From assembly GCA_036172245.1 (NCBI GenBank), contig JAYWIR010000090.1:1-64000 (forward strand): DNA of 64,000 bases, given 5' to 3'. Below are positions 33,401-64,000 of this stretch, piece after piece. Numbering within the stretch: the first letter of the stretch is position 1; each line of letters opens with the position of its first letter. Source of the stretch: Raillietiella orientalis. Taxonomy: Eukaryota. A program made the translations under genes and the position numbers. The notes beneath the pieces were generated by a model. That model was not told the origin of the DNA. It did no database searches and saw only the letters and a list, made by a program, of their open reading frames with translations.

Positions 33401-33419
33401 AAGATGGGGACGATGGAAA

Positions 33420-34640: not shown

Positions 34641-34656
34641 GGAACCGGGTAGCAGC
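34141..34656. repeat. 18-bp direct repeat (34141-34158, 34639-34656) flanking about 480 bp
   Basis: ctggaaccgggtagcagc occurs at both positions. Confidence 0.8.
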
Positions 34657-35105: not shown

Positions 35106-35425
35106 TTTCACAGGGACGTTCACTCATTAAAAATAATAATGATAGTAAAAGGTGGACATTCAAAGGTGGAGCTGAGTTTCCACCAGCATCTTGCGAAGAC
35201 GGGCATACCAGGAGGGAGGAGGGTCTGCACTGACAAATGAACAAATGAAAAATGAAAGAATCCCTTTGAATAAATAACATGAACAAAAAATGCGAAGACG
35301 GGGAAGGTTCACCAGGTTCAATTCCTTTTGACTTTCAGTCCTTGCAGGATTCAGACGACGTCTTTCTTCGCTCATAAGGTCAAGCGAGATCACGTTGCCG
35401 TTCTAGGTCTTTCAAAGATGGATAA
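35106..35425 (-). mobile_element. Degenerate 3' end/3' UTR of the family
   Basis: Minus-strand agtgaacgtccctgtg (35124-35109) resembles AATAAACGTCCCGGCG. The UTR is pyrimidine-rich and contains gtatgcccg, as in B. Confidence 0.5.
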
Positions 35426-35429
35426 AGGG

Positions 35430-37970: not shown

Positions 37971-39403
37971 AATTGTGGAAAAAAATGCGGAAATGAAATT
38001 AGAAAAAATGCAAGCACCCACTGTGGGGACTAGGACAGACTAGGACTACTTTTCCTTTGAGACCATTTTTAAGAACGTTTATTGGCCTGAAATCCAATGT
38101 TCTGCACCTGCTAACTGTCGTCACAACAATCATTGTTAAATATTTATCCTTAATTTTCTGTCTTCAAGAAGAACGCAAATCTTCTAGAGGAGCATGTAAT
38201 TTTCTTTAGATGGACACTTGATCAACAGGTCACTATTCATAATCGGTCTCCATCTTTCGGCTGTTCATCTCGATGCATGCTACTGATCTGCTTTGTGGAC
38301 CCAGATAATGATGCATGACTACAGGAAGCAGTTAAAAAAAACCGCCATAGAAGAGCCACAATTAAAAACCACTACAGAAAGAGAGTAATCGATAAAGCAT
38401 CATTTTAGCCACTAGAAGGAGATCTCAGGCAAAGCATCACTTATGAAAAAAAATGCATGGAAGCATCCTTGCATCCCCACTAGAACACTCCTCACTCTTG
38501 AACTGGCACAAAAATATGACGATCGTTGTTACAGACTCCTTCACAAATAATGAAATCAGGAGTTCACGTTACACATGAGAAATCTTTGTACAAGTAAAAT
38601 GAGCTCTTAGAGAGAGAAACTTTCCTGTAAATAAAATAAATAATGTAATCATTGTCATCGATTGCACTGCCATCCGCATCCATTCAACCTCTCGTAGTTT
38701 CACAAATTTCGCAGCTATCCGGAGAGATTCCCTCCCTCTTACGTGGTCCTAAAAGCTCCCAAATGGATTTTAAGAGGGAGAATCCAATGCGGGAATCCTG
38801 CAGATAAATCAATTGTTACCATTTGCAAGTTGCAGTGGTTTCTTTTTCTTCCGGGCTGACACAATGGATGTATGCTATTAGTTACAGAGTACATCAGACT
38901 GCACGGATGAGCAGGGTAATTTTGCCTTTGGATGAATTTGGTCACATGGCCAAATTGAGCCAAAATTCTGTGCCATATTGAAGTCAGTATTTTGCATTAA
39001 TTAAGAAGAATTCTCCCTCTTTGTTGTAAACAAAGCATTCTGTCAAGTTTCCTTTCTACTACTATCTTCATTATAAGAAAGAGTTATAGAATCTTGTTCC
39101 TGTTTTAAAAAAGCATTTGTTTTTAAATGACTTCTTTAGCGGCAACTGTGATGCTATTCTTCAGAGAAAGCAAGGTTTCTATTATAGACGATGTAGGCTT
39201 TGTTTACATTGAAATCGATGTACTACACAGCTCTCAGCGAGCTCATCCATTTGGTTGGTTTGTCCAGTACGTGTAATCCTTCATGTAAGTTTTTCTGTAG
39301 TTGCATCAAATGCTGAAATAGGGGAAACAGTCAGGAAGAAGATTTGACCTCACGGCGAATTACGCATCTACATTTCCATGGCATTAACGGTTTCATCATT
39401 TTT

Positions 39404-42400
39404 ATGAAGCTGATTTGTGTATTGCAATGTAGCGTTGTTTTTGTGTATTCACAGTTAATAATCAACGTACAAAATGAGGTAAGTCTTGCATCTCTTGAAG
39501 TGTTTTCCAAGCTTATAAGACATGGATGTGCTTTGTAAGTATTGCTTAATATTGATTTCTAGCATTAATTGCCAAGCAAACGAACTCCCATCATTCGTAC
39601 GTATTATCAAAAATCGTGAGTTTGTAATGAGATTTAAGTTATAAATTATGAATTATGTGACCCACAGAAGTCGTAGCGTTATCAATGAAACCGATCTTAA
39701 CGTAAAGGGTCCAGTTTTTGCATTTTTTTTGTTTTAGAACAATGAATTGGCAGTTTATATTTGGATATCCTTCCAGATAGTGGAAATTATTCTTTTATGA
39801 TGGTGACAGATATTCTTATCGACTTTTTGCTACATGTTGCGAAAGTTAGCGATTAATCCCATGTAAGAAATACATGAATATTTATTGCACAGACCAAGTC
39901 AACTGCTTGATGGATTAATAATTAACAAAAATTGAATGGCAGCATTGTTTAGAACTGTGATCGAAGGTTGCAGGTGTATTAGGTATTTCAAAGAAGTTTT
40001 GCAATAAAGATATCCGTATCTGATAGAAAGGTTTTTCGAGAGCTGTTCTGTAAACCGTTACAGAACTAAAGCCAATGTGGCATTTGCTTGCAGTCAGTTT
40101 GCTGTAACCATGATTTATTTAAAAAGTCTATCTAAAGAACTTCTGGACCTAATTTCGTTTGGTTTCAAAGTAATAGACCCCAGTTTTCTTTACCTTATTT
40201 CCAGTAGCCATCAGCATTATTCTCCTTATTTCGAAAATTGAGAATGCTCCAAGAAATAGCCTTTTAAAATGTAAGCCTAATTCATGTAAAGATTAAGGTT
40301 TATTGTAGAAGTTATACCTTGATGTTGATTCCAGGGTTACTATTGTTGTGTTTTGCCTGAAATTATTAATAATGCTTGGAACTGTCATTGTATGAATATC
40401 AGTTTCTACAAATTTTACCTTAGTAACTGGTTGTCGAAATTTCAATGGGTTTTGATAAGTAACTCGGTTTTATTTTAAAAATCTCCTCCAAAGTTTTTTT
40501 TATTGATATTAGCAAAAAAAAGCAAAAACAAATTAGCATCTGTTTTGGTTAATCATTAAAAAATACATATGTTTGGAAGTAGATATGGCATCATATTCAT
40601 TTATTTATTGATATTCATTTATTCATTATTGTTTTATTTTCTCACTAAAAAAAAATTCTGAGAGTATGAGGTACTTATCATAGAAAACTGAATCTTTTTT
40701 AAAGAAAAGTATTTTTTAATTTTTGTTAATTGCATCTTGCTTATAATACTCTATTGTTGCAAAGTTGTAAATATTATGTGATATATAATTGTTCTAGAGA
40801 TTATGTGATTTGAATTCCACTTTTTTTAGAGTAGAGAACCTATTAAGTCAGAGTGGGGCATAAATTCCTCAACATTCATGATATTTGGTTTTGTAGGGAG
40901 GAGATGTATTACAAGAGTATTTCTTTGCTAATGTCACAGAGGATACTGTTCAGATGACAGTATTAGGGATGGATGGTATCCAGATCACTCATTCTATGGA
41001 TTTTCGAAATGTGAGTGTAGTAAACATCAATGACTTGATGGAGTCTGGTTGTTTGAATTGAAGTTTGATAGCCTTATGGCTAATTGAATTTAAATTCATA
41101 TGAACTTGAACTTATAAATTCAACATGTAAAGTTAGTTTTCATATGGCTTAAACTTGAGAAGTAAACTTATATCATGTATGTACAAACATGAAAGTACAT
41201 CACAGTCATAGTATTATATTATGATATGCATTGATGTGCCTTGCAATTTTTGTTTGGAAACTATTTACTTTGGAGAATGCTACCTTACAAAAAAGTTTCC
41301 ACAAGAAGTTCTTTAATGGAGATGTCTTTTACAGTCACATATTTGAAGACATCTGTTTAGTTTTTTTTTTTCTCTTCTGACATTTTAAGTGATAGACAAT
41401 TCCATCAAAGACAAAGGCATTTTGTCTTGAAATTATCTTTCAATTACATTAATTATGTAATAATTGAGTAAAGTGAGATGGCATTCTTCTAGATGCTTAG
41501 TCAGCTTCTTGAGTGATAGTTCTATGAAGTCCATTTGGAACTAGTGGACTCCATAGAACTTGATGTAGCTTACTTTATTATTTTTCCCTAGGATATGCAG
41601 ATTTTCCAAGCAAAAATTCCTGGAGAGGAAGAGTTGGATCAGTCAGAAGATCAGACATTTTGCTTTGTGACAAGGTTTCCACGAATGGAATTTATCTCTT
41701 CAGATGCTTTGTCAAAACTAAAACAGGTAAATTAAGAAGCAATTTTTATTATAATTATAATTCATTTAATATGGCTATCTGCACTTCAGATAGCCACATT
41801 AAATGATTTAGTTCATTATTGTTTAAGAATCTCCAAGGTAATAAATTATGTAAAGCAGCTAGCAAAATAATTGTTCTTCAGTAGATTTTTTCTTTTTTAA
41901 GTTGATAATGTTTAGATGAGGATATTTAAAAAAGTAAAAAAAAAATGTGTTCATTTCCTAGAAGAATCCAAGAGCCATTCGGTTCCCAGATGATGATTTA
42001 GGTGAAAAGCTATATTTTATGGATGTGCAGTTGTCATTACCTAAAGCATTTACACTTAGTGAACAACTTCAGGTGCTGTGCTCTGAAGCCTGGACTTATT
42101 CACAAAAGAATGATCTCCATTCATGGCTAACCCTTCTGAGTAAGTATAAAAGAATCAATCATTCACTTTTTTTTAAGGCAATGTGAATGCTAGCATCTCA
42201 GCAAATGACTATGCTGTTACTCAGAATATGAATGGTGTTCCTATTTGTAGTGTTGTTTCTAATGAAGATAATCGTTCCTGTTTATGCACGTTCAAAATTT
42301 CTATACTGTGGTATCCGTGTACATTAAAGTATTGTCAAGATGATCTTGGCCATGGAAAAACCATTAGCTATCGTTGTGGCATTAAATCTTGTAGAAAAAT

Positions 42401-42455
42401 CCGTACATTTACATTTCTGGTTGAGGAAAGGAATCAGTGTCCTTGGAGTTTCTGA
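39404..42455 (+). CDS. OAF: Out at first protein homolog (exons start 39404, 40897, about 41592, about 41962, about 42178)
   Basis: Signal-peptide-like MKLICVLQ..QLIINVQNE|GGDVLQE; GEEELDQSEDQTFCFV...SSDALSKLKQ|KNPRAIR; WYPCTLKYC...YRCGIKSCRK...CPW. Confidence 0.92.
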
Positions 42456-47010: not shown

Positions 47011-49559
47011 ATGTGGAATTTTTTCAAAGACATCACATCATTAAGTAGTAATTATGAATTCATTAGTAATAGTCCAGAAAAATGTGATGTGTACATTTGG
47101 AAATGTCAAAAAGGGAGAAAAAAGGTATCAGAATGTGATTAAATATATTTATCCTGTATCCCATTAGCATTCAGAAGAAATCGTTTCAGTATTTACAATA
47201 AATCTGAAGACAGCTGGCAAAACTCAAATAGATTTGGCACGAAATGCAATTCGTAATGCCAAAATCTTGAAGCATCCTAGTGTAATTACCTTTGTGGATA
47301 GCCAGGAAGTAAGTTTCTAATGCACAACATTTGCTTCATGTCTGTATCTAGACAGACTCCACCTTACACATGATAACAGAATATGTTCAGCCTCTATCCA
47401 TTTATCTACAACAAAATGAAAAGATGAGTGCAGTTCAGAAAAATGGAAGCATTTCGTGGGGATTACATCAGGTGCTGGTCAGTTGATCTGCAACAAAGGT
47501 CCCATAGTCAACTGTGTAGATCTGTAGAAAGGTCTTAGCTTTCTCCATGATCAGGCTACTATGATCCACTTGAGATTGCAAGTGGATTCCATTTTTGTGA
47601 ATCAAGCAGGAGAATGGAAAATAGGAGGTCTGGAACATCTATGTCGCATGTCAGATGTACAAGTTTTGCCACCTACTGATGTGTATACATGCCCAGAATT
47701 GAGAAACTTTTCTACTTCAAATAAGTTGACTTGGGCTGTTGATATGTGGGGACTTGGATGTCTCCTGTGGGAACTCTTCAATGGCCAGCTGCAGACATCT
47801 TCACAGTTAGATTCTATCAGGAAGGTAATAATTAGGGATGACATATTAGGGATTAAATGCTTTAGATCCCTACATCTGTGGTTCCATTATACAAGTCATT
47901 AGTATCATCACAAGTCACTAAGCGCCCTAGTGCAAAGAAATTGTTAAGCACTCACCTTAATAATTTCTTGTGCAATGATCTTGTGAATACTCTGTTGTTT
48001 CTTGAAGAAGTACAATTGAAGGACAGTCATGAAATCAGTCGCTTCCTTTCTGCCTTGCCTCAAATGCTTGATGCCTTCCCCACAGATCTATGTTGTTACA
48101 AAGTGCTACCTCTACTTGTTAATGCATTGGATTATAGCAATGCTGGATCAGCAGTTCTCACTCCTTTGCTGCAAGTACACATTTGGGATCCCAGTGGGCT
48201 CCTATCTGTTGCAGATAGGCAAACAGCTTGATAAAGAAGAATACCAGCGTATGGTGCTTCCCTCAGTAGTGAAGTTATTTGCATCACCTGACCGTGCTAC
48301 TCGAATGAAGTTACTTCAGCAGCTAGAATTATTTATTCCCCATCTGCAGTCTTCACTAGTGAATGATAAAATCTTCCAGCAAGTGGCACAGGGTTTTCAT
48401 GATAGTAATGCAGCAATTCGAGAAGCTACTGTGAAGGTGATCTTGGTCTTGCTTTGTAATTCAAAATGATGCTCTCATAGGCAGTGCTTCCTTTGGCTCC
48501 CAAGCTTAATCATAAGAATTTGAATGTGGAACTGCTTAGACATTTGGCTCGACTACAATCTCGGGATGAACAGGTGAATTGCATGTGTGTGAATAACTGG
48601 ACATCGTTATATCCAGGGTGGCATCCGCACCAATACTACGATTTGCTTAGGAAAAATTGCTTGCCACTTGCATCCTAGCACTCGTTGTAATATTCTTATT
48701 CCTGCCTTTATACGTGCCATGAAAGATCCTTTCCCTCCAGCAAGACTTGCAGGTCTGCAAATACGTCATCATTATAATTGGTTTAACCTTTTTAATGGAT
48801 GCAGGAATATTGGCTCTTATAGTCACTCAAAATTACTATATGCTGGAGGAAGTTGCTACTCGTATCCTACCAGCCCTCTGTTGTTTGACTGTAGATATTG
48901 ATAAATCAGTCAGGGATCAGGTTTTTCGGACCATCAAGGGATTTGTTGCCAAATTAGAAAAAGTTTCTGAAGATCCTGATCTCAAGGATGTCATGGGTAG
49001 ATTGAGAGTATCTTGTTATATATATTTAGCTGTAGAAAAGGATGTCCATGCTGCTGGTGGAACTGTACTTGATGTTTCCAGCTGGGCTTCTTGGGCCCTT
49101 GGTGCTCTCACTTCAACATTTTACAAAAGTGATCGAAGCAGCAAAACTTCTCAAAAAGAACATGTGGAGAGTCCTGAACAAGGAGAAAACAAAAATGAAT
49201 CGAGAGAGGAAGAATCCGTTCAAGGGAACCTGAGTGTGAGAACTAGCAGCTTAATGCATATGCATTGTCTGTTTAGGAAGGTGTTTCCGGAGTGAATTTG
49301 GAAGACTTGGACAGCTGGGAAAATGAGGAATGGGGAAGTCTGGAAGAGCAAACAGAAGAACCTTCTTATAGCCATGCAAGTGGTGTACAAGATCCTAGGT
49401 GGGGACTTATGCAGAAAGCATCTGTCATGAATTCAAGAAAGGATCCAATTAATCAGGTCGTTTTGAATTCATTTTTTTTGTTTTGAATATGTAGTTTAGG
49501 CTGCTGATGGTTGGGATGAGTGGCCTGATGAAGAGTTGGGCAGTTCTTTGAAGAAATGA
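47011..49559 (+). CDS. SCYL1: N-terminal kinase-like protein SCYL1 (pseudokinase plus HEAT repeats), multi-exon
   Basis: MWNFFKD..., [75 protein letters not shown] and [12 protein letters not shown] at 49557-49559. Confidence 0.95.
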
Positions 49560-50099: not shown

Positions 50100-50870
50100 T
50101 TATTCATGAAGTGAACAAACATGTTGAGAACGAAGTTCCCGAAAGCAAACAAAAAGTTCAAGGGAGAGTTTCATCGACACTCAAATCGGTCATTAAAGAA
50201 GTCGGAAACGGGAGGCAGAGGAAGATCTGCTCGATCGCAGGAGTGGAGAAACTTTGCGCATAAACCAATGCTACTCCGCTGGGCGGAAACTGTGAGTGTT
50301 CCAGAAAGGCACTTGTTTCTCCCCGTCTTACGCCTGGACAGTTCCGTGCTCCACTCAGATGGCAGGATTACGTGGTGCTTCCCTTGCAGTGGTTCCTCTT
50401 GCTACGAACGTATGCAACATGCGTTCACCGTCGGTTGTGGGAGCAGCTGGTTTCGGCACTTTTGCGCAGTAATAATTTGCAAGCTGAATTTCTGCGTCGG
50501 TTCTTCTCGAGCGAGGGTCTCACTCCTGCCGCAGTGATCACGACTTTGTGCAGTGTGGCATCATCAAGGCCTCCTACTCGCAAGAGTACACCAGTGGCAA
50601 CGTGTAGCCATCTGCATAGCATTCTCTCTCATGAAGAATACTTGTAGGTGGCTCGATGTATGCAAAGAATTCATCAAGGAGATCGCTAACATCTTGCGGA
50701 GGTTGTGACGCCGGAGCAATGATTTCGATGTTCCTATCCCCCACCCACCAGCTATTTCTTTCTGTCTTTCACCCTCCAATGCTGCAGACAGTTTCTTCGG
50801 CCAACCCGCGTGTTGGGGTGCTCCGCAAGTTCAACAAGGTTTTTTTTTTGTTTTTGATTCACAAGAAACC
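50100..50870 (+). mobile_element. Solitary degenerate 3' fragment of the L1/Tx1-like family
   Basis: KICSIAGVEKL, LLRWAETVSVP...LDSSV, LWEQLVSALL...FLRRFFSSEG and KEIANILRRL are collinear with the element C ORF2 C-terminus; several frameshifts. Confidence 0.8.
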
Positions 50871-53509
50871 TACTTCCTTGACCAAATGTAGTTTCATTTA
50901 TATAAGTAAAATACTTGGTGCAACCTGCTGAAAAGCTTTTTGAAGGCAGTCCAACCATATTCACCAACGCCCGACAGAATGCCAAGGTACATATGTCCAG
51001 GCGGATCTATTCGAACTTCCTCTGCAAAGTCGAGAGTTGCTGAAATTCAAGATACTGCGAGTGCTTATTTTTCGGCAACCTATTTTTCCAAGCTAAAGAC
51101 ATGACAGTAAGATGTATAACAGATTCCAAAACGACTTGATTTCGTAGATTCTGTCGGAATCGGAATGTCCACAAGGGTGTGCAGTTGAAAAAAGCGAATG
51201 GGATTTTCATTATTTTATCGTGGATATTGGTTACGCTGAAGCTTCAAAGTGGATCGCATTGATAAAATTCGGTTCTGATTGTGAATGCAAAGCTTCAATC
51301 AGGTAGAAACTTTTACAACACGGAGTTGTGATGTCGATGTTTCATAGACCGATAAATCAATTTAATGAACCATTTACACTTCTGATGTTCTGTTGGATCA
51401 TGGCACATTCCCGAAAGTGCTATCCAGCATTCATAAATTGATTCAATAAACTTTGTGACACTCATCATAGCGAGATAGTACAAGTTTAATTCGGGAAGTA
51501 GTATTTTCACACCTTTAACCTCTGATGCCAGTTCGTAAAATTCAAAACAGTGCTTTGGAGGCTCGTGTAAATTTTCTTAACAGAGCAGGCTTTCAAACTA
51601 TATACCACAAAAACATCAAGTCAAATGCGAATTATTCGATTTAAAAGTGTTTTTATTAAGAAACTTCAAGTTGGAATTCCAAGATGATCTCAATTTCAAG
51701 TCTGTAAAGAGAAATTTTCTTTCAGACCCAATTTGAAGGTTCCTCGTGAAAGCACGCACGCAAATGCAATTAGTGAGAATTGAGCGTTCCTGACTCACTC
51801 GCGTATGCATGCTTCGATAAAGGAGTAATCATATCTTTCTGTCTTAATTCGCTTTCACTTTCATCTGTTTTGGGCAAAGCTAGACACTAAGAAAGACAAT
51901 TCGTAATACTAATTAAAGTATGACATTGCATCATAAAATGTGAGGAAATAAAAAGTAATTTTATGAAGAATGACAGAACGCCATTGCAAGATGATTTCAG
52001 TTTTTTTGCCTGTGCATTCAAACATTCAATGGTTGAGAACGCTATTTGAGTGCCTCTATATGATTGCTGCAAGCGGTTGCAACTAGTTGGTTTGGAAACT
52101 TTCGATTTCTTAGGTTCATGCATAAGATTCAACATGATTTATAAACAAAACGATGATCCCTGTTTGAAAGAATTCGATTTCATTTTTTGGATCAAAGCTC
52201 AACTGACCAACAGAAAACATGGATACATTCAGCGTACACTTCGACGAAAGAAAACCAATTTTATTCAAAATACGAGAATGCATTCCCAAAATCATTTCCC
52301 TTTTTTTTCTGCGAATAGAAATACAAAACGTCAGAGAACGTTATTTGAGTGCAACTTCCACCTTGGTCATCTGATGTAGGAACACCTAGTGAAGAAGAAC
52401 AACGATATGCTACAATGCTACAAATACAATACATGCAACATAAAGTGCGAGGAAGAAAAGGTAATTTCATTGTGGATGAAAGATGGCCCTTGTAAAAAGA
52501 TTTCACTTTCAAAATTGTAAACAAAACCTATTTTTTTAAATCTCCACATGATGCCTTCTGTCTCAAGACTGTATGATCGCGAATCGGAATAATAAGATCT
52601 AGGTGCTAATTATCTGTGAATGCATGCTTATTGGTGTTCCGCTATCAAGCAAATACGGTTACCATTGATCGTCATGCGGTTTTGAAAGCTCTGTGACAAG
52701 CCGAAGTCAACGAAAAAGAATAGGCCACACAAGGGGAAACAAGAAGTCTGAAACGCAAGAACCGAAAAAAATACAATTGGTCTATGAAAGAAAGGGAACA
52801 ATTGAAGGAGATCTTAGTATCGGATCTTTCAAGGAAAACTTCTAGTTTTTGGGACCTATTTGCGCCTTTCTCCATCAAGCATCCTGGATACGGGAAGAGA
52901 TAAAAAGAATTGTGTTGGTCAAACGTTCGAATTTTTGTCCTATAGAAAGTAATGGGACAAAAAATGAATAATTTCCACTAATCGCAATGAACCTTGCTCT
53001 GCGTTGGAAAGAACTGAAGACCAAGAAAAAGAACACACGATTCCACTGGACGTATCGCATGTCCAAGCAAGCGCGTGAAAAAAAAAAGTGAGGGCATCAC
53101 GAACAAAAAAAGGCAATTCTAAGATTATCTCAGCTGGAAGTCATCGAGAAAAGACCTACACTATTGTGAAACCCGATTTATAGGCTTCCCTTTCATGACC
53201 TCATGCCTTGAAAAGAAACTAAATGGAATTGTCTGTTTCGGAGGTTTGTGTGCCGTGGTAGATAACTCGACAAAACAACGCTGATATACGGTGAGAGCAT
53301 CTCGCCAGGATAGCATTTCCAAAAAGAACAGAATTAATGAAAGCAACATACAATAATATTTTACTTGTGACATACTCTAAACAAACTCAAAGTAAAAACA
53401 AAAATTTCATGCTGAATGAAATAAACAAGTATCAAAGCAGTGAAAAAATCCTTCCTGAAAAAACAAACATTCAAGGAATCAAAAATCAGTGGACATATAG
53501 GTGGACATG

Positions 53510-55790
53510 AGGTGTGAGAGAACCCCTAATGTTGCATTTAGGAAGAATTCTGAATAGCAGCCAATAGCAGTACATTTGGAAGATGCATTCGCATGAATTC
53601 TTCCTCGCATGTCATTCAAAAATGCGCTTCCATGGAAAACATTTCATACAATATGCGCTTCACGCTTTGCTTTGTCCGGGAACGTAGAGACCTAAACTCA
53701 ATCCACCTAATTGCTATTCTTTGCTACTGTTTATAATTGAACATGCTTTCGAGTTTGCAAATTGCAATCGACGAATAAGACCAACATGAATGCAGGATAA
53801 ACGCAGATGTCCTATTTTGCATAAAGATGAATCCTACGTTCTGCTCGGACATACCGAGGTCAATTCGAAGGCGTGGTGGTCTTTGTGTGTTTTGAACCTT
53901 AAGGAGACCTGGATTCGAAGATCTGTGCATTTTTTGCGTACTGCAGTAGCCGCAGAGAGAAATCGAGCCGCATTTTACATCTACGATTTCCAAGTCAGCT
54001 GACATGAAATTCCTGAAGAATAGAGGTGTGCATCCATTTACGTTTCTTGAATTTGTACATCCCTTTTGTGAGATCAATGTTCGCTATAGAAATTGAGAAG
54101 AATTGCGGATAGTAGCCACTTAAGATCCATAAGCAGAAGGTTTGGAATACATCCTTTTCCCCATGTCATTCTAGTTGTCGTTTCCTTGGTAAAAAACAAG
54201 AAACACAACTTCCCACACATTACTTCTTACCGTGAAGCATGGGGCATCAACAGGATGCCAAGAATTCGAAGACATTGCGAAGGTATCGAATGAATTTGTC
54301 TGCGGACAGCGGAAACATTTACTGACTAATTCAATTTACCTACATGCAGGATATCTGGCGATCGTTTATAGTGTGAAAATGCATATCAAACGGTGATCTC
54401 ATTCACAGTCACGATCAACTCGAAAACGTAGTGGTCGTTGTGGGTTTAGGACTTTACACAAGCATTGAATGAAGTAGCTCTTCTTGTATTTCATATTGAA
54501 GTAGCTGCAATCAGAAGACAAACCGCAATTCAAACCGAGTATTTCGGAACCTTCTCATGAAACTTTGTTCGAAAAACCTGGGCCTATCCACTGTCACTAT
54601 CACCATTTCTACGAAACTAACGTGTGATACGAACTATGGCGTTGCAATTGAAAAGAATACCAATAAGTACCGAATTCCAATCAATTTCTAGGATGTCATG
54701 GTACGAACCATTTTGCATGTCACTCAAACATTCGCATCCATGCAAAGGAACCATGTGCTATGTGGCTCACAGATTTTATCAGCTATGGACGTTTGAGCCT
54801 AAACGGAGACCATGAAATTAAAAGACATGGCGACTGCATGTTCTTGTAAAAAGTTTACGACTACGATAATGCCTACCGAGGATCACGATTATTCTGGGTA
54901 GAAAATAACTGGCGACGTCTAACTGCTGAAAAAACCAAACCTACGTGGTTCTCTGGAATTTCATTGTCAATTCGAAAGTGTAATGGTAGTTGTGTTCTTG
55001 TGCACGTTTCAAAGAAACTGAATCTAAGTTCCACATCTCTTGCATACCGAGGTACCTGCAGAAATACGACGGGCCCCAACTGAAAACTAAAATTTCCAAA
55101 TCAATTCAGTTGACATTCTTCGTAACAAGCGGTGTGTTCTACTTGACATTGCCTGGAATCTTAGAAGCAATATGAGAGAAGAGGGTGCGGTTTTGTATTT
55201 GAGAATGGTGCATAGTACCGTACTGCAATCCATGTGAAGGTTGTTCTGGTATGAAAACTTTTTCCCATGTCATTCAAACAGTCGTTTCCATGGTGAACAC
55301 AAGAGAAGAAAAGGCGTTCCATCAATCATTTCTTCTTTCGAAGAACACACTCATATCAACGAAATCCGCAGAATTCGAAAAAACTGCGTAAGCATCTAAT
55401 TAGTGATTCTTTTTTGTGCGGCAGCATTACCTTACAAATGCGATTTACTTACGATGCAAGATAACTGGCTGTGTTCTTTTATGTCAAAATGTGTAAAGCA
55501 AGCTCTTCTCATTCATTGTCATGGTCAAATCAAAAGAGTAGTGTTGGAATCTGTGTTGTACACCCGAAACAGACACTGCTTGAAAAAGATCAACATTTCG
55601 TTCATACTGAAGCATCTGCAGAAAAACGACGAACCTTATTTCAAACGAAGAAATTCCAATTCAGTATAGAATTCGTTATTCGTAAACTGCCGCACAGACA
55701 TCAAGCGTACCTACACCTGTACTTAATTGAGGTGCGAGAGAACCCCTAATGTTATATTTAGGAAGAATTGTGAATAGCAGCCAATAGCAT
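53510..55790 (+). repeat. Degenerate tandem array of ~555-bp units with coding-like content (more diverged relatives at about 51400-52400)
   Basis: catgtca[tc]tc recurs near 53608, 54161, 54717 and 55267. atgca[ga]gata recurs near 53790, 54344 and 55454. A 59-bp segment at 53511 recurs at 55731 (2220 bp = 4 x 555) with 4 mismatches. Confidence 0.75.
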
Positions 55791-56326
55791 ACGGCAAGAA
55801 GGTTGTGAGGCGGCCGGCGGAAGGCAAAGGCCCGGAAACATCCGAGTCCGAAGCGGAAGCCGGAAGCGCTCCCTCCAGTACCCTCCCGAAAAGGAAGGCG
55901 GGGCGGAAGTCCCAGAACCCTGGGCGCGTCGTTCCCCCTCAGGTGGAGGAGGTAATGCCCTCAGAGAACGAGGAGGCAATGTCCGCGATGTCACGCGACT
56001 CCTCGGTGGAAAAAAGAACACCGCCGGAGGATACTAGTTTACAATGTCCAGGAATGCACGAGACTCCTTTAGCCGAAGCGATGCCCGTCGACCAGGACAA
56101 CGACCATCCGCCTCCCGAACAGGAGATGGAAACAAAATCGCCACCAACATCAACAGAGTGATGCGTGGAATCGCCTCTTGCCGGCAATCAAGCATAGCCT
56201 GTTGGAATGTCAACGGGCTGCCTGACGAAGGCAAGAGGCGCGGGATGGCCGACACCCTGCGACCTTTCGACCTGGCTCTTCTCCAAGAGACGCATGCGCT
56301 CAGAGGAGAGGACGTCCAGGAGATTT
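55790..56326 (+). mobile_element. Element G: ORF1 tail and first ~55 codons of ORF2, cut by the 3' end of element C
   Basis: The ORF1 tail ends in TGA at 56161, overlapping the ATG of MRGIASCRQSSIACWNVNGL...ALLQETH. Confidence 0.85.
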
Positions 56327-56699
56327 CTCACCCGGTCACGCCGGGGCGTTTATTTCATATAAATAGAAATAGAAATATATATATATATATAATATTTCAT
56401 ATAAATAGAAATAAATATATAAAATAAACCAGTTGGGGACAATGCCCCCAACCGACGACGGCACAAGTATCAAGAGAATATTGCTGGCACGCAGGCCAGA
56501 ATTACACAGAACGGTTTGTGGGAACTGGGAAAACAAACAAACAAATACAAAATAAAAAGAAATCAACGGGGACAAGGGTCTTTGGGATCGCTCTGGTTCT
56601 TTCCGGTATAATAGTAATGGCACCGGTATTTTAGCAGAGCGAGCGGGGAAGGGGTATGGGTGGGCTTCAGGACGTAGTGGTCACCGGATTAAGCCGTTC

Positions 56700-59600
56700 C
56701 TAAAAGTGTGTAAACCGGCGGTGGATGCCGGCAATGTCCTCTTTGACCTCGTCACGAAGATGAGACCACCTAGCAGCGTTTTTCATGGATTCCGCTGCAA
56801 ACCGGTGAGCCTCCCTTCGCTGCGCTGACAACTCCAGGGCGTAGCGGGCCTCCACGATGGCGCGAATGCAACACATGGTTGCGACAATCGCGCCTACCGA
56901 AAATCCATTGCTCCTGAAGAAGCGCCGCAGCACATCAATGGCAGTGCCTCCCTGCGGCAGGATGGCTGAAATCAGCCTTCGCCACAGTTCACGGAGGTCA
57001 CCGCAGTCCATCAAGAGGTGCGGAAAAGACTCGATCTCACCGCACCTCAAACAGTTTGGCGGAGCAGCTCCCCCGGAAACGATGCTTCGCTGCCGATTAC
57101 AGTGGAAGCCCCAGTGTAAAAAGAGCAGCACATCTTGTTTCCACTTTAAGGGGAACACGGAGCTGTCCAAACAAACGGGGGGGACCACTATCACTTCGGG
57201 GGGTACACTTAAATGTTCACTCCACCGAAGCAGGCCATTCGCCCGATTACGAGGAGTGGCAGCTTAGAACAGCTCCTTTGTCGTCCAGCAGCCGAGGAGC
57301 TTACTGACTCCCGCTATTGAGCAGAACTCCCATTTCGCCGGTAGGCAACTGTCGTTGCTTGCCCTGAGGGCAGACAGCGCTGCGGCGAGCGGTGTGGCGG
57401 CCAGACGATCCGACATCTTCTTGTCCTGCATGACTTCGTCCATTGGATGACTGAGGAGAAGTCGCAGGCGCCGAAGATCTTCCGGGCGCGTTCCTTCGGA
57501 AGCTGCCCACGATGAAAAAGATTCCTGCCGCCATGCATTAATGTTCATGGGGCGGCAGGAGATCCAGCTTTGGGCTTCTAGCAGTGAGGACAGCTGCCTC
57601 AGCGGGAAGCCAAACCCTATTATGGTGTGCCGAAAGTGGGGCAGCAACGAAAGCAGTCCCTCGCTTCTTGTGCAGTGCCTCAGTATAAGTCGTGCGGGTA
57701 AGCACCACGGCGTACACCACAGCTTGGCACACAGCCGCAGCATTCGAAACTGCACCTGCAGCTCGATGCTTTTTAAGTCTAGGGTGCCCAAGCCTGCATC
57801 CTGACGTGGCGCCACCAAGTCTTTAAGTCTTACGCGGGATCTTGCAGCGCCCCACAATGTTTTGCGTAGAAGGTGCTGCGCCCAGACTTTGACTTCCTGG
57901 GGGGGTGGACAAACAAAAAACAGGGGACGGAGGAGGGAAGCAACGAAGGTGTTCCAGATGCTGGCTCGTTCCGGCAAGACGAACTCGCCTCCTGAGAACG
58001 GGCCAAGTGCACGCTCTGCCTTCCGAAGGCAGTCCGACCACGCTTCTGAGATGCAGAAGTCGCCCAACGGCACGCCAAGGTACCTTAGATACCTGCCCGT
58101 GGGGATCCCCAGGCGGATCCAGTCGGACTGCCCCTCCAAAGTCGCTCCAACCGGAACAACCAGGCTCTTGCTCCTGTTGACGCTCACGCCCGCACCGCGA
58201 CGGATCAACTCAAAGAAATCTTCAAGCGACGCCGCCGGGGTGGACATGGGCAACAGAAGAAGCAGGTCGTCGGCATAGGCTGCCACGGCCGGCGTACCTG
58301 AAGAGGAGCTCGGCAGGTTGGCTAGCGTCAGCCTGTAAGCCTCCAGAACCATTTCAAAATAGATGCTAAAGAGCAGCGGCCTCAAGCTATCGCCCTGCCT
58401 AATTCCTCGCCTAACCGGCACGCCGTACACGTGACAGCCACTGGAAACAATGGATGTAATCGCGTGGTGCCAGCAGGAGCGCAAGTACGCCAACAGGGAT
58501 GCCGGGAGGCCCAGACGTTCCAAGAGCTCAAGAAGAAGCTTTTGGTTCACGCAATCGAAAGCTTTGTGCAAATCGACTGCAACCGCCAAGGCTCCCGGTG
58601 TTTCCCTTTGCGACCCGCGCCTCCGTCGGTGAGAGATCGAAGGCGTCGCTTCCGAACGACGATCCACCGCCACACGATGCTGCAATTGCAGCCATGTGCG
58701 GATGAACAAGAGATTCGCGTCCATGGACCGCCCAGGAACAGCGTACGTCTGCTCCGGACTTACCAAGGATTCCGCGATCCTACCCATCCGCGCCACCCAA
58801 AGTTTCGAGAACAACTTGACGTCCGAATTCACTAATGTGATCGGACGCCAGTTGTTCAGTTGGCGCAAATCTCCGCCTTTCGGCAGTAGACGCACCTTCG
58901 CTGAGCGAAACGAGGCGGGGACATCGCGCGAGTCTCGCATCAGCGACGAGAGCTGGAGCACCAGAGGGATGAGCTCCGCCGCAAAACACTGAAAGAATTC
59001 CGCGGGGAGCCCATCTTCGCCTGGCTCTTTTCGTCTCTTGAGTCCCGAGATGGCCGAGGAAATTTCCTCTGCCGTGAAGGGCTCATCCAGACGCGCGCGT
59101 TCCTCCTCGTCTACAACACGTGCATCGATCGGCAGAAGCAGCTCGGAGAGACTGCATACCGTTGGTGCCTCTGCATACAGAGAAGAGTAATAGCGCCTGA
59201 CTATCCGTCGCACGTCGGCTGGAGCCGAGCATTCCCGGTCCTGGTCGTCGAGCAGAACTGTCGCCCCTGACTGCCAGACCTGGCGCTCGGCCTTGGCCTT
59301 GTACTCGGATAATCGACCAACGTCCGCGCGCCTGGAGTAAGAGCGGGCCTGCAGAAAATCTCTGCTGTTGGCTACACCCTCTCCGAAGCCGCGCGGAAGC
59401 TGGTGCAAGGGAAACCGGCAGCAAAACTCGCGGACCGATCTTTTCACATCGTCCCAGTTAGCGAGCTCACTTATGGCGAAGCCGCGGAGGTCCTGGAGAA
59501 GATGCTCCGCCGCATCCGGGTGACTTAGCCAGTCTGCCGGCATCCTCCAAACATAGTTTGGAGGCCCCTTGCCTGGCGGGAGCAACTCGAACTCGAGCCT

Positions 59601-60269
59601 GTTGTGGTCTGAAAGCACGGACGGCATGGGAAATCTCCGACCCACTCGAGAGAGCAAGTGTTCATCGAGGAATACATGGTCCGGTGATGTCGCCATAACA
59701 GGGTCCTTAGCGAACAAGCTGCACGCGTGCACGGACGCGTACATCTCTTCCACTAGCAACTTTTCCCTTTTGTGTGCGCTATTCCCGGTCAGCAGTTGGA
59801 CGTTTAAGTCCCCCGCAATGAAATGCGCCACAGTAGGGTGAGAACGAGTGAGCCACTGGCTCTGAACGGTACCGAAGAACTCAATCCTTTCGGCCCATCG
59901 TCCAGCACCGCTCGGCGCGTACACGTTGGTTACGACAAGGTCGGTCGAGTCGGACCACTTGAGTACAAGCTGTCCCACTCGGCCTTTCGTGTCGAAACGA
60001 ACGCTGCGCACCGCTCCCGCCAAAGTTCCTCGCACGAGGAAAGCGACGCCGCACGTACGTGCAGCGCCGTACCTATAAAGTAGCGTTCCGCCTGCGCGCC
60101 GTTCGATTTCGGCAGCCTGCTCTCCAGAGATGCTGTGAATCTCCTGCAGGAGCGTCAAGTCGAAGGCGCGCAGAGCGTCAGCCACTAGTCGCCTCTTCTC
60201 CTCGTGTTGGAGCCCGTTGACGTTCCAAGACGTTACGGCAACACGACGAGAACACGCGATTGCCCTCAT
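56700..60269 (-). pseudogene. ORF2 of element C: APE endonuclease, reverse transcriptase, C-terminal zinc finger (~1190 codons, one premature TAA)
   Basis: SWNVNG, LQE, NVYAP, GDLN, PDH, SDH; PGEDG, WRPITL, DLHKAFD, RQGD, YADD, RYLGV; CLRC..ES..HLLMDC. Track ORFs 57264..60272 and 56700..57194 share one frame, separated by TAA at 57266-57264. Confidence 0.93.
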
Positions 60270-60961
60270 CACGGCTGGGAAAGCGAGGCCGTGGTGTTCG
60301 CCTCACCCGGCGAGCGGGCAGTAAGTAGCACGACGGGCTGGAGGGCGCGGTCGCCACCGGCCTCAACTGTGCTGCACGTAATCGGGTGCTCCTTCCCGGG
60401 TGCAGAACCTGTGGGTTCCGGGGTGAGCACTCGCCGTTCCGCAGCGAATGTGTCACGCCTCAGGACTTTAGCCCTGCGGGCGCTCGCTCCCGCGTGAGTA
60501 ACGCGTCGTTCAGCGGCGCTATCGGACTCCTTGTCGGAGTCTGATGCTCGCACGATCGACGTGCGCTTGCATCCGTCCGATTGCACCGGAATGGTCTTCT
60601 CGGCCGTCACAGAAGCGGACTTGCAAGCGTTGAAGGCGCTGGCTTTTTCCTTGGAAGAGGTACAAGCCGCGCGTGTTTTCGTATTCACGCGAGTGCTTTT
60701 TCCTTTGGAAGAGTTCAGGGATGGATGTTGCGAAGCCTTTTTTGGAGATTTTTCTTTCCTCCTCCCCACAACCTTCCATTCGCCTTTGCGATTTTCGGAG
60801 GCTTCCGCGACGATAGTTGCGGAAACCTCCGGGATTTTCGCTGCTTTCTCTGGGGGCGTTGCTTTCGCTACGCTTTTGAAAGGCGGCAACGGAGTCACCT
60901 TCTTGACAGTCGGGAGATCGCTCCTCTCCTGCCGAGTCGGTGAACTTGCTTCGCGGCTCAA
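60269..60961 (-). pseudogene. C-terminal half of ORF1 of element C
   Basis: Low-complexity basic region with GEWKVVGRRK. Its TGA overlaps the ORF2 ATG (TGATG). Confidence 0.75.
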
Positions 60962-61110
60962 AGTCTTGTGCGCTCGACAACATAATCAGTTAATTGTGCT
61001 CGTGTGTGCCCGGAGAGGGGAAGTTTTCCAGACGAAACTACAAAAGAAGCGGCGAGGAGATCGCGGCAAAAGACCTGCAGTGGTCCCGTGCAGCAAGACC
61101 AGCTGCGAGG

Positions 61111-62897
61111 ATGCAGGCACCTAGAGGAGGAGTGGAGAGACCGTCGTCCCCCATGGAAGCCATGGAGGTAACGTGCGGCAACGGCGAGGCGGTGGCAAGC
61201 ATGCCGAGGATCGCGCCCGCGGCGGGCTTTGCTGCGCCGGCGACGGCGATGCCAAGGGTCGTGCCCGCGATGACGACGGCGGAGTTCGTACCCGCGGCGG
61301 CGACGCCGAGGATCGTGTCCGCGGCGGGGAAGGTCGCGCCTGCGGCGGCGATGCCGAGGGTGCCGCCCGCGGCAGCAGCGGTGGCGACGTCGAGGGTTGC
61401 GCTCGCGGCGGCGGCGTCCCAGGCAGGACCCGCGGGCGTCCACGCGGTGCAGGGCGAGACGCCATCTTGTTCGGCTGCGGCGGCGCAGCCCTTGTCCTAT
61501 GCGTCGGTGGCGGCTGGACAAGCGAGTGTCCACCCACCAAGAAAATTCGGGAAGCCGCTATGCGGCAAAGTCCAAAAGGTGGATCGGCAAATCGCGGAAT
61601 TAGGGCCGAATGTGAAGCCCATCATTTTCAAGACAGGGCTGATCAAATTTAATAATATCAGGGAGGTGTATCTGTCCCTCGATAAAACGGATATCAATTT
61701 TGATAGCATACAGGCGATCATACCGGCAAATAAAGGGTTCACAGTCTTCACAGACTGTAAAAATATTAGAGAGCATTTGATCCAGAAGGGGATCAATATA
61801 CAAGGGAGGATGGTTTGTGGTATTGGCGAAATGCCATACACAACCGTGTTTCTGAACGGCATCTCCATCCTCACACCGCAACTAACGGTGTGGAACTTTT
61901 TGGAGCAGTATGGGGAAGTTCTGGACCTTGAATTCCAGAACTTCTCTGGAAATATATTTTCTGGCGACATGATCGCCAAAATGAAGTTGAAAGAGGGAGC
62001 TGTGATCCCTGGATAAGCCGTTCTTGACGAACAATCCCAGGGAGTGAACGTGCGTTACCGGCAACAACCGATATTCTGCACCGGGTGCAAGCAGTTCGGC
62101 CACAGGGCCGGCGCTTGCCCAACGTGTCGTTGTTTCCGCTGCGGCAAAGTAGGACATCAAGTCCGAAACTGCCCGCAGCCGGAGGTGTGCTCCTTCTGCA
62201 AGAAACACGGACATGCCAAATGGAGCTGTCCGGAGTTTGCAAACTGCAGAAGGATTCGAGGTCTCTCTCCCGTGAGAGAGAGAAACACCAAGGAGGCGGA
62301 ACAGCCTCAGAAGGCAGGAAGGCCGAAGAAGGTGAAAGGAGCCGTCCCGGTATCAGAAGACGGCTTCATACAGGTAGGGAGAAAGGAAAGAGGAGGATGC
62401 TCGTCAAGGAGCAAGAAACCCCTCTTATACTACAAGGTGAAGAGCAAGAAGGCGAGAAGATGGAGGTAGCGCAGGAAGGCGCGGAAGAAGAAATAGCCGA
62501 AGCCACTCCGGTGTCGCAGGAGGCCCTGCAATCTACGGAGGAGTTGGCATCACTGGCTAATGAAGTCCTAGAGGTGCAGAGCGGTCCCCAGCAAGAGAAA
62601 ATCTTGCAGAAGATCTGCAATGCACAGGAGAAGGTCAACCAGGTTGTGAAGGTCACCGAGCGCGAAAAGCTAGAGGAACAGCTTCTCGACGTAAAGGCGA
62701 ACTTCTGCGCCAAGGTCCAGATAAAGACGCTATCTCGAAAACTGATCGCGCGGGCCGAACACTCGACGGAGGAGGCGGAAGTAACCGACCTCACCGGAAC
62801 AGAGAGTGATGCCGGCAGCGAGAAGCCCACTGCTTCTTTATTGTCTGGAAGAGCACGCTCTCTCAGACAGAAAAAGCTCAGGAAGGCCAAGAAATAG
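61111..62897 (+). pseudogene. ORF1 of element D (Ala-rich repeats, RRM-like domain, three CCHC knuckles, acidic/coiled tail); one TAA and one frameshift
   Basis: SYASVAA, FLEQYGEV, CTGCKQFGHRAGAC, CFRCGKVGHQVRNC and CSFCKKHGHAKWSC. In-frame TAA at 62014-62016; probable frameshift near 62390 into the 62085..62897 frame. Confidence 0.85.
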
Positions 62898-62910
62898 GTC
62901 TTCCCCTTTT

Positions 62911-64000
62911 ATGGCCTCTTCCCTATCGACCGCCAGGAGGCTGAACATCGCCTCCTGGAATGTAAACGGTATGGTCGACCAGGGAAAAAGAAAAAGGATT
63001 GTGCGGACCATCGCAGAACAAGACATAGTGTGCCTGCAGGAGACCCACAAGATGGGTCTCGAGATTAGTCAGCAAATGGAACGGCGATTCAACGGGCAGA
63101 TTTTCGTCAGCGAGGGAGAACGGAACACGCAGGGCGTGGCGGTCCTAAAGAAGAACAACTTGGCCCCCACTATTCTGGAAGTGTTCTGTCCCCAACCCGG
63201 ACGAATCATCGGCGTGCGACTGGCCTGGTCCGCTACTGTTCACCTCATCCTGGTGAACGTGTACGGGCCGCACAGGCTAGAACATCGTTGTGTGGAGGCG
63301 CTGCATGCAGCACTCCGTGAAAAGGTTGCTTCCAAGGACGTCGTGATTGTTGCTGGCGATCTCAACATATTGGATGAGATCACTCACTCCGATGACGCCA
63401 GAGGAAGGACGGCGTATCGGCGGTTATCCGACGAGTTCGGACTGGTGTGGCGAACTGCAAGTCACAAGCCGATCGATCACGTCCTGCACAGCACCGAACT
63501 TGGGAATCGCATCCAGGGTTTTCGAGACATTATGACCACGGTGTCCGATCACCCCCTGGTGCGGTTTTCCCTAAGAACGGAGAATCCTCGGCGGAGGCAA
63601 GGCACCAGGGCGGCGCTCATCAGCATGCCCGCCTGGTTCGAAACCCATCCCGGACATCAGGCTGTCCTGGAGACGATTCTGAAGGCAACAACAATCCGAA
63701 GAGTCGCCGACTGGGACAGCCTGAAACACAGGAGACACCTGTTTGCAAACATGCAGTTCGGAGATTGGCGCTTGAGGCAGGAGGCGTACCGGGAGCTGAA
63801 CATCCAAGATTGCTCACTCTCAAAGTACTTCGATCAGTACGAGAGTCGGTACGTCTTCAAGAACATAAAAGGGGGAGTCGGTGTGCTGGAGAAGAGAAAT
63901 CTGGCAACAGATATCTTCTGCATCCAGTACGACGGTCAAAAGCGACAGTCGTCTGAGGACATCGTGAATGCCTTTCAAAGGCATTACACGAAACACTTTA
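62911..64000 (+). CDS. ORF2 of element D, APE-type endonuclease and linker (open to the window end; absent from the ORF track)
   Basis: Manual translation from ATG 62911: MASSLSTARRLNIASWNVNG...CLQETH...GVAVL...NVYGP...AGDLN...IDHV...SDHP...DWDSLK; no stop up to 64000. Confidence 0.92.
   Translation, partial: MASSLSTARRLNIASWNVNGMVDQGKRKRIVRTIAEQDIVCLQETHKMGLEISQQMERRFNGQIFVSEGERNTQGVAVLKKNNLAPTILEVFCPQPGRIIGVRLAWSATVHLILVNVYGPHRLEHRCVEALHAALREKVASKDVVIVAGDLNILDEITHSDDARGRTAYRRLSDEFGLVWRTASHKPIDHVLHSTELGNRIQGFRDIMTTVSDHPLVRFSLRTENPRRRQGTRAALISMPAWFETHPGHQAVLETILKATTIRRVADWDSLKHRRHLFANMQFGDWRLRQEAYRELNIQDCSLSKYFDQYESRYVFKNIKGGVGVLEKRNLATDIFCIQYDGQKRQSSEDIVNAFQRHYTKHF

Follow-up and report, generated by a model that had tools for sequence, protein, structure and literature searches.

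The last 8.2 kb of the 64,000-nucleotide stretch of Raillietiella orientalis contig JAYWIR010000090.1 analysed here (hereafter the window) is a cluster of three defective LINE copies of different families, termed G, C and D, that came to lie within or beside each other, with the strand alternating from piece to piece (55790-64000). The cluster is an ordinary LINE pile-up, for which a nest, with D inside C and C inside G, is plausible but unproven. The three pieces and their G(+)/C(-)/D(+) order, put forward in a preliminary description of this DNA, are borne out by open reading frames with Exo_endo_phos and RVT_1 domains; identities, strands and lesions can be read directly, and the joint between G and C is the true 3' terminus of C. 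With a GC content of 54-59%, the copies form a GC-rich island within intergenic DNA, and the surrounding host DNA is AT-rich, gene-dense and animal-like. All three are now defective, and no sign of a host function was seen for G, C or D. The features are as follows.

55730-55789, no strand: 60-bp host repeat copy, ending exactly at the G start; second copy at 53510-53569
55790-56322, plus: G whole, a short internal fragment
55790-56158, plus: G ORF1 tail, ~123 codons (ORF 55778-56161)
56161-56322, plus: G ORF2 codons 1-54, N-terminus of an AP-type endonuclease, broken off after ...GEDVQE
56323-60985, minus: C whole, from the exact 3' terminus through ORF2 into the ORF1 tail
56323-56699, minus: 3' UTR of C down to its exact 3' terminus, with two conserved hairpins and without poly(A)
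56331-56345, minus: C terminal hairpin (5-bp stem, 5-nt loop), then U-R-A-N-AAA
56357-56428, minus: C AT-rich tandem repeat (TRF)
about 56431-56453, minus: C second hairpin (folds and alignment)
56700-60269, minus: C ORF2 (endonuclease, RT, C-terminal Cys/His motif), start ATG 60269-60267
60269-60985, minus: C ORF1 tail, 238 codons (ORF 60269-60985)
about 60986 to beyond 64000, plus: D whole, with a short leader, ORF1 (broken twice) and the ORF2 start
60986-61110, plus: C/D joint and D leader; the first base of D falls somewhere here
61111-62897, plus: D ORF1 (ORFs 60994-62016, 62017-62469 and 62028-62897)
61201-61416, plus: Ala/Pro-rich repeat of D ORF1 (TRF)
62911-64000, plus: D ORF2 start and endonuclease domain, frame open to the window end (ORF 62785-63999)

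The three copies belong to distinct L1-like families

The ORF2 of C matches Exo_endo_phos at residues 25-233 (E 1.5e-10) and RVT_1 at residues 474-744 (E 1.4e-17), with a zf-RVT match under the Pfam cut-off (E 0.0058). It is interrupted by a single in-frame stop at 57264-57266, on either side of which the ORFs 57264-60302 and 56700-57263 share one frame. The C ORF1 stop overlaps the ORF2 start in TGATG at 60271-60267. The ORF1 tail carries a GEWKVVGRRK motif, as do the tails of D and of B, a LINE copy in a left cluster (1-4250, pieces A, B and E); it contains no Met and no zinc knuckle and matches no Pfam family. The form of a whole ORF1 in this LINE group is displayed by B and D. At its 3' end, C can be aligned to the copy ends lying at 200-620 and at 3600-4020 (fold z -3.5 for C), and its last ~30 nt match the termini of two other window copies, at 502 and 3902, the 3' hairpins being kept across subfamilies in the window. 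A poly(A) or A-rich 3' tail is absent in C, A and E, all three of which end in a hairpin plus U-R-A-N-AAA; these ends fit the hairpin-ended minority of the L1 group and not the poly(A) type.

G is much shorter and looks like a 5'-truncated copy. Its start falls within a conserved K-V-V-x-R-R motif that is also present in the C and B ORF1 tails, so that the preliminary view of the plus-strand pieces as 5' parts fails here: G has no real 5' end and begins inside an ORF1 tail. Its ORF1 stop and ORF2 start overlap in TGATG (UGAUG in RNA) at 56159-56163; because G and C have this overlap in common, the ORF upstream in G is a genuine ORF1 tail, and G derives, in truncated form, from a C-related family. 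The endonuclease fragment aligns with C ORF2 residues 11-66 (57% over 56 aa, tblastn E 1.2e-13), and its own Exo_endo_phos match is weak and under the Pfam cut-off (E 0.0057). On the host side, the repeat that ends at the G start is 93.5% alike in its two copies (53508-53569 vs 55728-55789, blastn), and the likeness stops sharply at both ends.

D has zinc knuckles in ORF1 (zf-CCHC, Pfam E 1.7e-5), and B ORF1 resembles D at 61618-62187 (23%, E 2.8e-11); thus D carries an ORF1 protein with knuckles and B likeness upstream of ORF2, and C and G keep the tail only. The D endonuclease is recognized at E 1.8e-16 (Exo_endo_phos, Pfam). Two lesions disrupt ORF1, an in-frame stop at 62014-62016 and a frame change between 62379 and 62470; a contig of the public run X1, which provides independent data, differs from D by one letter in length at 62379, and an X1 contig extends D ORF2 by 206 letters past the window end. 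D, supposedly the youngest copy, has two lesions in 1.8 kb of ORF1 vs one in the 3.6-kb C ORF2, too few to weigh.

As previously noted, the endonuclease N-termini of the three pieces differ (G/C 57%, G/D 40% and C/D 27% at the amino-acid level), and blastn finds no nucleotide-level likeness among G, C and D. This amino-acid divergence, together with the lack of nucleotide likeness, upholds the view that they are distinct subfamilies and not one folded-back copy. The best solved relative of C ORF2 is human LINE-1 ORF2p (E 1.2e-41, against 7e-15 for R2), and by this closest solved structure the G, C and D families appear L1-like. They are poorly represented among retrievable sequences. A protein search retrieved a single metagenome protein, P0001, at 58%, with all other matches at <=29%. 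An ORF2-alignment scan of metagenomes yielded 74 loci, all distant, the best sizeable segments being 22-31% identical; the P0001 contig is not among them, and the scan gave no extra copies that would define termini. An atlas look-up returned nothing beyond generic APE-RT clusters.

C is inserted in the endonuclease-coding region of G

The G frame and its likeness to the C endonuclease extend to 56322-56325, in agreement with the proposal that G is cut inside its endonuclease; the cut lies at 56322, after ORF2 codon 54. That the cut is made by the exact 3' terminus of C also holds, both from the likeness of this terminus to the copies ending at 502 and 3902 and from an X1 contig that matches from 56323 rightwards and differs before. 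The terminus of the inner element, at 56323, thus adjoins ORF2 codon 54 in the interior of the outer one. To our knowledge, a LINE 3' terminus is made by integration only; since the C terminus lies in the G endonuclease, C integrated into G, and an antisense insertion of C in the endonuclease-coding region of G is well supported.

The two 12-letter words earlier noted as target-site duplications (TSDs; about 60950-60961 and 56315-56326) each occur once in the window, with partner sites expected beyond 64000; none of the copies lies in the window with both of its ends. The longest word common to 56285-56335 and 60950-61030 has 7 letters. C by itself is thus not bordered by any TSD-like repeat, as no such word exceeds 7 letters, and the plus frames after 60986 show no endonuclease continuation (tblastn E 0.72). 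On these two grounds we rejected the reading in which C simply entered a contiguous G-D sequence.

The C/D joint recurs in independent data

At the C/D joint, C is open on the minus strand as far as 60986-60988, where its frame closes, and on the plus strand the D frame is open from 60994; no zinc knuckle is readable on the minus strand past 60985. The proposal that C is cut inside ORF1 by the 5' end of D stands in part: only the ORF1 tail of C remains, ending at 60985, and D starts somewhere within 60986-61110. Because the window holds no second D copy, this approximate 5' start is not demonstrable as the true 5' terminus of the family. A plus-strand ORF spans the joint; a protein search with it gave no match, which carries no weight either way.

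X1 record 7 bridges the joint (60717-61232), with 268 and 240 letters either side, so that the joint exists as DNA and was not created by assembly. The bridging copy is ~6% diverged from the window, and the tiling records 6 and 7 share the differences. These two records together account for the full depth of the bin 60701-61000, and the sole X1 cover of 60808-61232 at a likeness of at least 90% is the joined C/D form. All long X1 contigs across C and D show a likeness of 91-96%, with depths between 7 and 23. The ~6% diverged bridging contig suggests that the C/D joint is not unique to the window locus. A second C/D copy of this divergence would be unexpected of a one-off D insertion unless the locus was duplicated or shared by descent.

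X1 also contains a 3' end of the C type that is followed by 17 letters of non-G sequence, the flank beginning exactly at the C terminus. This non-G flank is an observation that speaks against the nest. The flank can be read as Q-A-E-I-E and aligned to C endonuclease codons (15/17 letters, two gaps) within 6 nt of the site homologous to the G cut; 92 of 8248 LINE windows (1.1%) match it equally well, and an 11-letter exact match to the C RT region scores higher than the endonuclease alignment. The diverged C/D bridge and the differently flanked C-type 3' end together raise the possibility that C and D were copied jointly, as one unit. For 55001-56200 (host DNA and most of G), X1 offers no cover, a hole that is no proof of absence.

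Strand alternation and the left cluster

The pattern was thought to be repeated independently, in mirror image, at 1-4250. An A(+)/B(-)/E(+) series does exist there; a same-strand fragment probably comes next, and the alternation is not statistically remarkable. Strands alternate at 2/2 adjacencies in the right cluster and at 4/5 in both clusters (one-sided binomial p about 0.19), a count in which 3903-4245, tentatively assigned to the plus strand, supplies the fifth adjacency, the same-strand one; strand alternation is therefore within chance. As a LINE 3' UTR, 3903-4245 gives no alignment above shuffles and resembles the others by a similar hairpin only. The cut sites within the window lie at G endonuclease codon 54, in the B ORF1 tail, in the C ORF1 tail and at E ORF2 codon 280. 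The left and right clusters as halves of one nest were rejected, as B overlaps the C ORF1 tail in content and E begins at ORF2 codon 280, not codon 55. Both clusters contain a head-to-head joint (C/D at about 60986, B/E at about 1772), each with one 5'-complete and one 5'-truncated partner.

Proposed history and alternatives

On balance, the cluster is probably a dead-end pile-up in which three L1-group (APE + RT) copies, each of its own family, accumulated through one target-primed reverse transcription event after another. G, truncated at its 5' end, would have entered host DNA first; a nick in the G sense strand after ORF2 codon 54 would then have primed on C RNA, and the resulting antisense C would have split G; finally, a near full-length D would have entered C ORF1 in antisense, just downstream of the zinc-knuckle region. 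We infer this order of events, as we do the presence of the C 5' half and the G 3' half to the right of the window. It is plausible that D is inserted in C ORF1, in which case these two halves follow rightwards; the window ends inside D.

A stereotyped C-D pair, either a chimeric unit retrotransposed via the C 3' hairpins or the outcome of families homing into antisense LINE coding sequence, is unlikely. Only slightly more doubtful is that the pair is one retro-copied unit, formed by 5' transduction or as a chimeric subfamily, that integrated into G. C and D would have lain head to head at a source locus, where a minus-strand transcript from in or beyond D to the C 3' hairpins would have been moved by the C machinery; rightwards, antisense D should end and G ORF2 resume directly, without a C 5' half. 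The ~6% diverged C/D joint in X1, tiled by records 6 and 7 with common differences, agrees with such a unit, and so does the X1 C-type 3' end, whose flank differs from the exact terminus onwards, as expected of a reverse-transcribed and not a DNA-duplicated copy. Yet the 3'-end contig and the bridging contig are not necessarily the same copy, the latter might come from the corresponding locus of a related organism or from a segmental duplication, and window D, at least 3 kb with a full ORF1, would be a long 5' extension. The recurrence of the joint in X1 would also follow if these families preferred defined antisense sites in the coding sequence of other LINEs, giving recurrent stereotyped stacks, and the 17-letter X1 flank can indeed be aligned (15/17, two gaps) near the C site homologous to the G cut; APE-encoding, target-specific lineages with transposon targets are on record (PMC4640811). 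We regard such targeting as quite improbable, however, given that 1.1% of LINE windows (92/8248) match the flank as well, that the 11-letter match to the C RT scores higher, that each event in the window has its own cut site, and that the endonuclease sites of C and D themselves are unoccupied.

Less probable again is a double event, a two-template form of twin priming in which both 3' ends of a staggered break in G prime, one on C RNA and one on D RNA, and the cDNAs are joined head to head, with G directly after D and no C 5' half. It would account for the head-to-head joints of a 5'-complete and a 5'-truncated partner in both clusters (C/D, B/E) and for the true 3' terminus at the outer end of C; but independent events would join at different points, whereas the same joint recurs in X1, and classical twin priming uses one RNA, whereas the two arms here belong to separate families (C/D 27% aa). 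Finally, a rearrangement, or an error in assembling repeats, might have created the adjacency: repeats are frequent in the region, and neither the host/G nor the G/C joint has independent read support. This is highly improbable, since the G/C joint falls on a LINE terminus to the exact base, an independent contig crosses the C/D joint, and no shared sequence that could mislead an assembler is present at the joints.

Significance and comparison with known systems

At present, the value of these data lies in routine repeat annotation: the 8.2 kb at the window end are dead copies of three poorly represented L1-like families, for which landmarks are supplied (3' hairpins, the UGAUG ORF1/ORF2 overlap and lesions). 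Should the C/D and C-into-endonuclease joints recur genome-wide, an animal L1-like lineage would seem either to copy such pairs as units or to target LINEs into other LINEs; if the C-D pair is stereotyped, the mechanism of this LINE group would produce alternating-strand stacks reproducibly and not by accident.

The window families share with the L1 group an ORF2 with an N-terminal AP-type endonuclease, RT and a C-terminal Cys/His motif, CCHC knuckles in ORF1 and 5'-truncated copies. They differ in being very distant in sequence from anything retrievable and in their UGAUG overlap; their clade is provisionally L1, with Tx1 as the alternative. Their structured, poly(A)-less 3' ends, with hairpins conserved across subfamilies, resemble the 'stringent' type of the group; PMC3472496 deals with an L1 lineage whose 3'-end recognition is stringent. 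As in nested transposon clusters, the terminus of a young element lies inside the coding sequence of an older one, within a GC-rich intergenic island of defective copies; here, however, only the left half is visible, and one joint recurs, diverged, in X1. A joint that recurs in diverged form is common where clusters have been duplicated but unusual for one nest. Repeats are the preferred sites of Tx1- and R1-clade elements. Like the target-specific LINEs of these clades, the window families encode an APE-type endonuclease, but no common target sequence is shown in the window, and the cut sites differ between events. Known targets of such APE-type LINEs include other transposons (PMC4640811). 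The head-to-head arrangement of C and D, with 3' ends outward, resembles the twin-priming inversions of L1. Such 5' inversions yield head-to-head LINE sequence with 3' ends outwards, and their classical form uses one RNA. In contrast, the C and D arms are different families with overlapping content, both carrying an endonuclease N-terminus, and hence are not two parts of one RNA; with N-termini at 57, 27 and 40% aa (G/C, C/D and G/D) and no nucleotide likeness, a twin-priming inversion of one element was rejected.

Three distinct LINE pieces at the right end of the window

Three LINE pieces, G (plus strand, from 55790), C (minus strand, 56323–60985) and D (plus strand, from about 60986 to past 64000), adjoin one another with the following features:

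55778–56161, plus strand: tail of G ORF1, a 127-codon frame
377 nt, minus strand: C 3′ UTR
1012 + 187 codons, minus strand: C ORF2 (Exo_endo_phos, RVT_1), one frame with a single stop at 57264–57266
238 codons up to 60985, minus strand: tail of C ORF1, with neither Met nor zinc knuckle
At most about 125 nt, plus strand: D leader
From 61111, plus strand: D ORF1, with an Ala/Pro-rich repeat and CCHC knuckles (1.7e-5)
From 62911, plus strand: D ORF2, open to the window end, with an endonuclease (1.8e-16)

The G ORF1 stop overlaps the next ATG as TGATG at 56159–56163, and the 54 codons downstream of it encode part of an AP-type endonuclease and resemble the N-terminus of the C endonuclease (57% over 56 residues, E 1.2e-13). 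C carries the same overlap at 60271–60267 (minus strand), and this shared UGAUG suggests that ORF2 translation is coupled to ORF1 by termination-reinitiation in both; in contrast, 13 nt lie between the D ORF1 stop (62895–62897) and the ORF2 ATG (62911). The D ORF1 region resembles the ORF1 at 458–1552 (23%, E 2.8e-11) and is damaged by a stop at 62014–62016 and a frame change between 62379 and 62470. Its N-terminal part (61201–61416) consists of imperfect 27–48-nt tandem repeats encoding Ala/Pro/Arg-rich units.

In C ORF2, Pfam recognizes Exo_endo_phos (1.5e-10), RVT_1 (1.4e-17) and, below the cut-off, zf-RVT (0.0058). The closest solved structure is human LINE-1 ORF2p (E 1.2e-41), with R2 proteins at 7e-15 or worse, and of 8000 candidates scored in a large protein collection, 11 reach E ≤ 0.001, one at 58% identity and the rest at 29% or less. 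These few, mostly distant matches, together with the proximity to LINE-1, point to poorly represented families of the L1 group.

The three endonuclease N-termini are 57, 40 and 27% identical pairwise at the amino acid level, with no nucleotide likeness among them. A folded-back copy and classical twin priming are thereby excluded, which bears out the preliminary description of three distinct elements. That description also took G for a 5′ part; the first base of G instead falls within the tail of ORF1, at a K-V-V-x-R-R motif also present in C and in B, a copy near the left end, and G is not a 5′ end but looks like an ordinary 5′-truncated copy. Directly adjoining its first base is a 60-bp direct repeat (55730–55789), 93.5% identical to 53510–53569, 2.2 kb away, with sharp ends on both sides; a host repeat, a small element and the ends of a 2.3-kb unit are candidate natures.

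C is integrated antisense into G

C shares its 3′ architecture with two further copies in the window, ending at 502 and 3902: a strong hairpin (8–11 bp, 3-nt loop) is followed by an A/T-rich spacer, then by a second hairpin of 5 bp with 5 nt in its loop, and finally by U-R-A-N-AAA. In C the spacer is enlarged by an AT-rich tandem repeat (56357–56428, units of 6 and 18 nt), where the related copies at 395–505 and 3795–3905 have only about 20 nt. The last base of C lies at plus-strand position 56323. A contig from an independent public sequencing run, X1, matches the window from this base to the right, and its 17 letters to the left of that base differ. The frame of G and its homology to C extend up to the same joint, so the claim that the exact C 3′ terminus interrupts the endonuclease of G stands. 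The primed nick is where the 3′ terminus of a LINE forms; since that of C abuts G, C integrated into G DNA, antisense, and a nest is a reasonable reading of this joint.

The 17 flanking X1 letters read Q-A-E-I-E in one frame and match C endonuclease codons (Q-A-A-E-I-E) in an alignment with two gaps and 15 of 17 letters agreeing, no more than 6 nt from the position homologous to the cut in G. However, 92 of 8248 LINE sequence windows (1.1%) score equally, and an 11-letter exact match of the flank to the C RT region scores higher, so an endonuclease origin is not singled out; insertion of C-type elements into other LINEs is no more than hinted at.

The C/D joint is real and has a diverged second copy

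The minus-strand frame of C closes at 60986–60988 and the plus-strand frame of D opens at 60994. No zinc knuckle is readable beyond 60986–60988 in the minus-strand reading of C; with B as a guide, where about 60 residues separate the last knuckle from the G-W-x-V-V motif, the break in C falls at the knuckle region or just after it. Of the proposal that the 5′ end of D cuts C within ORF1, the end of C in its ORF1 tail at 60985 thus holds, and the first base of D, a single copy in the window, is placed only approximately. A simple insertion of C between contiguous G and D was rejected: no continuation of the G endonuclease is seen in the plus-strand frames past 60986 (E 0.72), and the longest words common to the two flanks have 7 letters.

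The X1 run, kept as contigs, contains 0.21 of the sampled words, and its cover gap over host DNA and G carries no weight, as holes in cover prove nothing. Altogether 131 contigs match the window (27 at ≥99%, 42 at 95–99% and 62 at 90–95% likeness); their differences are mostly transitions, marking diverged copies rather than read errors, and the eight longest over C and D are 91–96% alike at depths of 7–23. One contig, record 7 (519 letters at depth 12.4, with 31 differences and 3 gaps), spans the C/D joint, its whole length being placed on 60717–61232. Record 6 (60395–60808) overlaps it with the same differences, and their depths sum to the full depth of bin 60701–61000, so the joined C/D form is the sole X1 representation here at ≥90% likeness. 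These data show that the C/D joint is real DNA and that there is a second C–D pair somewhere, with about 6% divergence; a retro-copy, a duplicate and the same locus in a relative are the candidates.

Strand alternation is within chance

The left cluster comprises:

1–502, plus strand: A, 3′ end of a copy
458–1552, leader to about 1771, minus strand: B, whole ORF1
1772–3902, plus strand: E, collinear with C from ORF2 codon 280

E is 88% identical to C over 1772–3241 and then lacks about 840 nt present in C (57158–57995); over its 3′ 500 nt it shares 85% with A (8–502) and only 66% with C. E is a mosaic, which could be a recombinant, a template-switched element or a deletion. Directly after its terminus, a moderately GC-rich segment (3903–4245) ends at AT-rich host DNA and carries, on the plus strand, a 9-bp hairpin resembling that of the LINE 3′ ends and then an A/T-rich tail; in sequence it resembles none of the other LINE 3′ UTRs in the window and is tentatively a short 5′-truncated LINE fragment on the same strand.

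The preliminary description took the right-hand stack for an independent repeat of the pattern at 1–4250. A, B and E do alternate, but with this probable same-strand neighbour four of five adjacencies over both clusters are antisense, and a fair coin gives at least four of five with p = 0.19; strand alternation is within chance. The anatomy given in the preliminary description was largely right, and its nest is reasonable for G and C and a candidate reading for C and D. The two clusters as halves of one nest were rejected, since B overlaps the content of the C ORF1 tail and the codon at which E begins does not fit.

Order of integration and alternative explanations

We narrowly favor an ordinary pile-up by successive integrations, in which G would have entered host DNA, C would then have entered G, and D would have landed in or against C; the diverged second C/D joint would be left to later duplication or common descent. 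It is improbable that the C–D unit was copied whole through the 3′ hairpins of C, and decidedly more improbable that a single break primed two templates, one from each side; either way, G would come directly after D to the right of 64000. Targeted LINE-in-LINE insertion, compatible with a nest, has a slim chance, a little above that of the two-template route: target-specific APE LINEs are known, with transposons among the targets named in PMC4640811, and recurrent sites are predicted, but the cut sites differ within the window. Misassembly or rearrangement is very unlikely, given the base-exact C terminus in G and the independent contig across the C/D joint. Such transposon clusters are common; this one consists of poorly represented L1-like families and is noteworthy only if its joints recur genome-wide.

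Host setting

Most of 4–56 kb is AT-rich (29–42% GC), between GC-rich blocks at both window ends (56–58% at 1–4000, 54–59% at 56001–64000). Matches of stop-to-stop frames identify host genes between these blocks as exon-like frames:

12226–13743, plus strand: Vma12
21082–23216, plus strand: WD40 + DUF3337 protein
31066–31416, plus strand: Mpv17/PMP22
42177–42452, plus strand: Out-at-first C-terminal domain
47528–49292, plus strand: protein kinase domain

These matches indicate an intron-bearing, gene-dense, animal-like eukaryote. The two LINE clusters flank the five genes, all on one strand within about 37 kb. A block at 32000–38000 (45–49% GC) holds several long frames on both strands that neither match Pfam nor resemble the LINE proteins of the window. 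Just downstream of the kinase-like gene, in otherwise AT-rich DNA, 50271–50705 (plus strand) is an older LINE copy, a degraded ORF2 C-terminus in three pieces with 39–52% amino acid identity to that of C.
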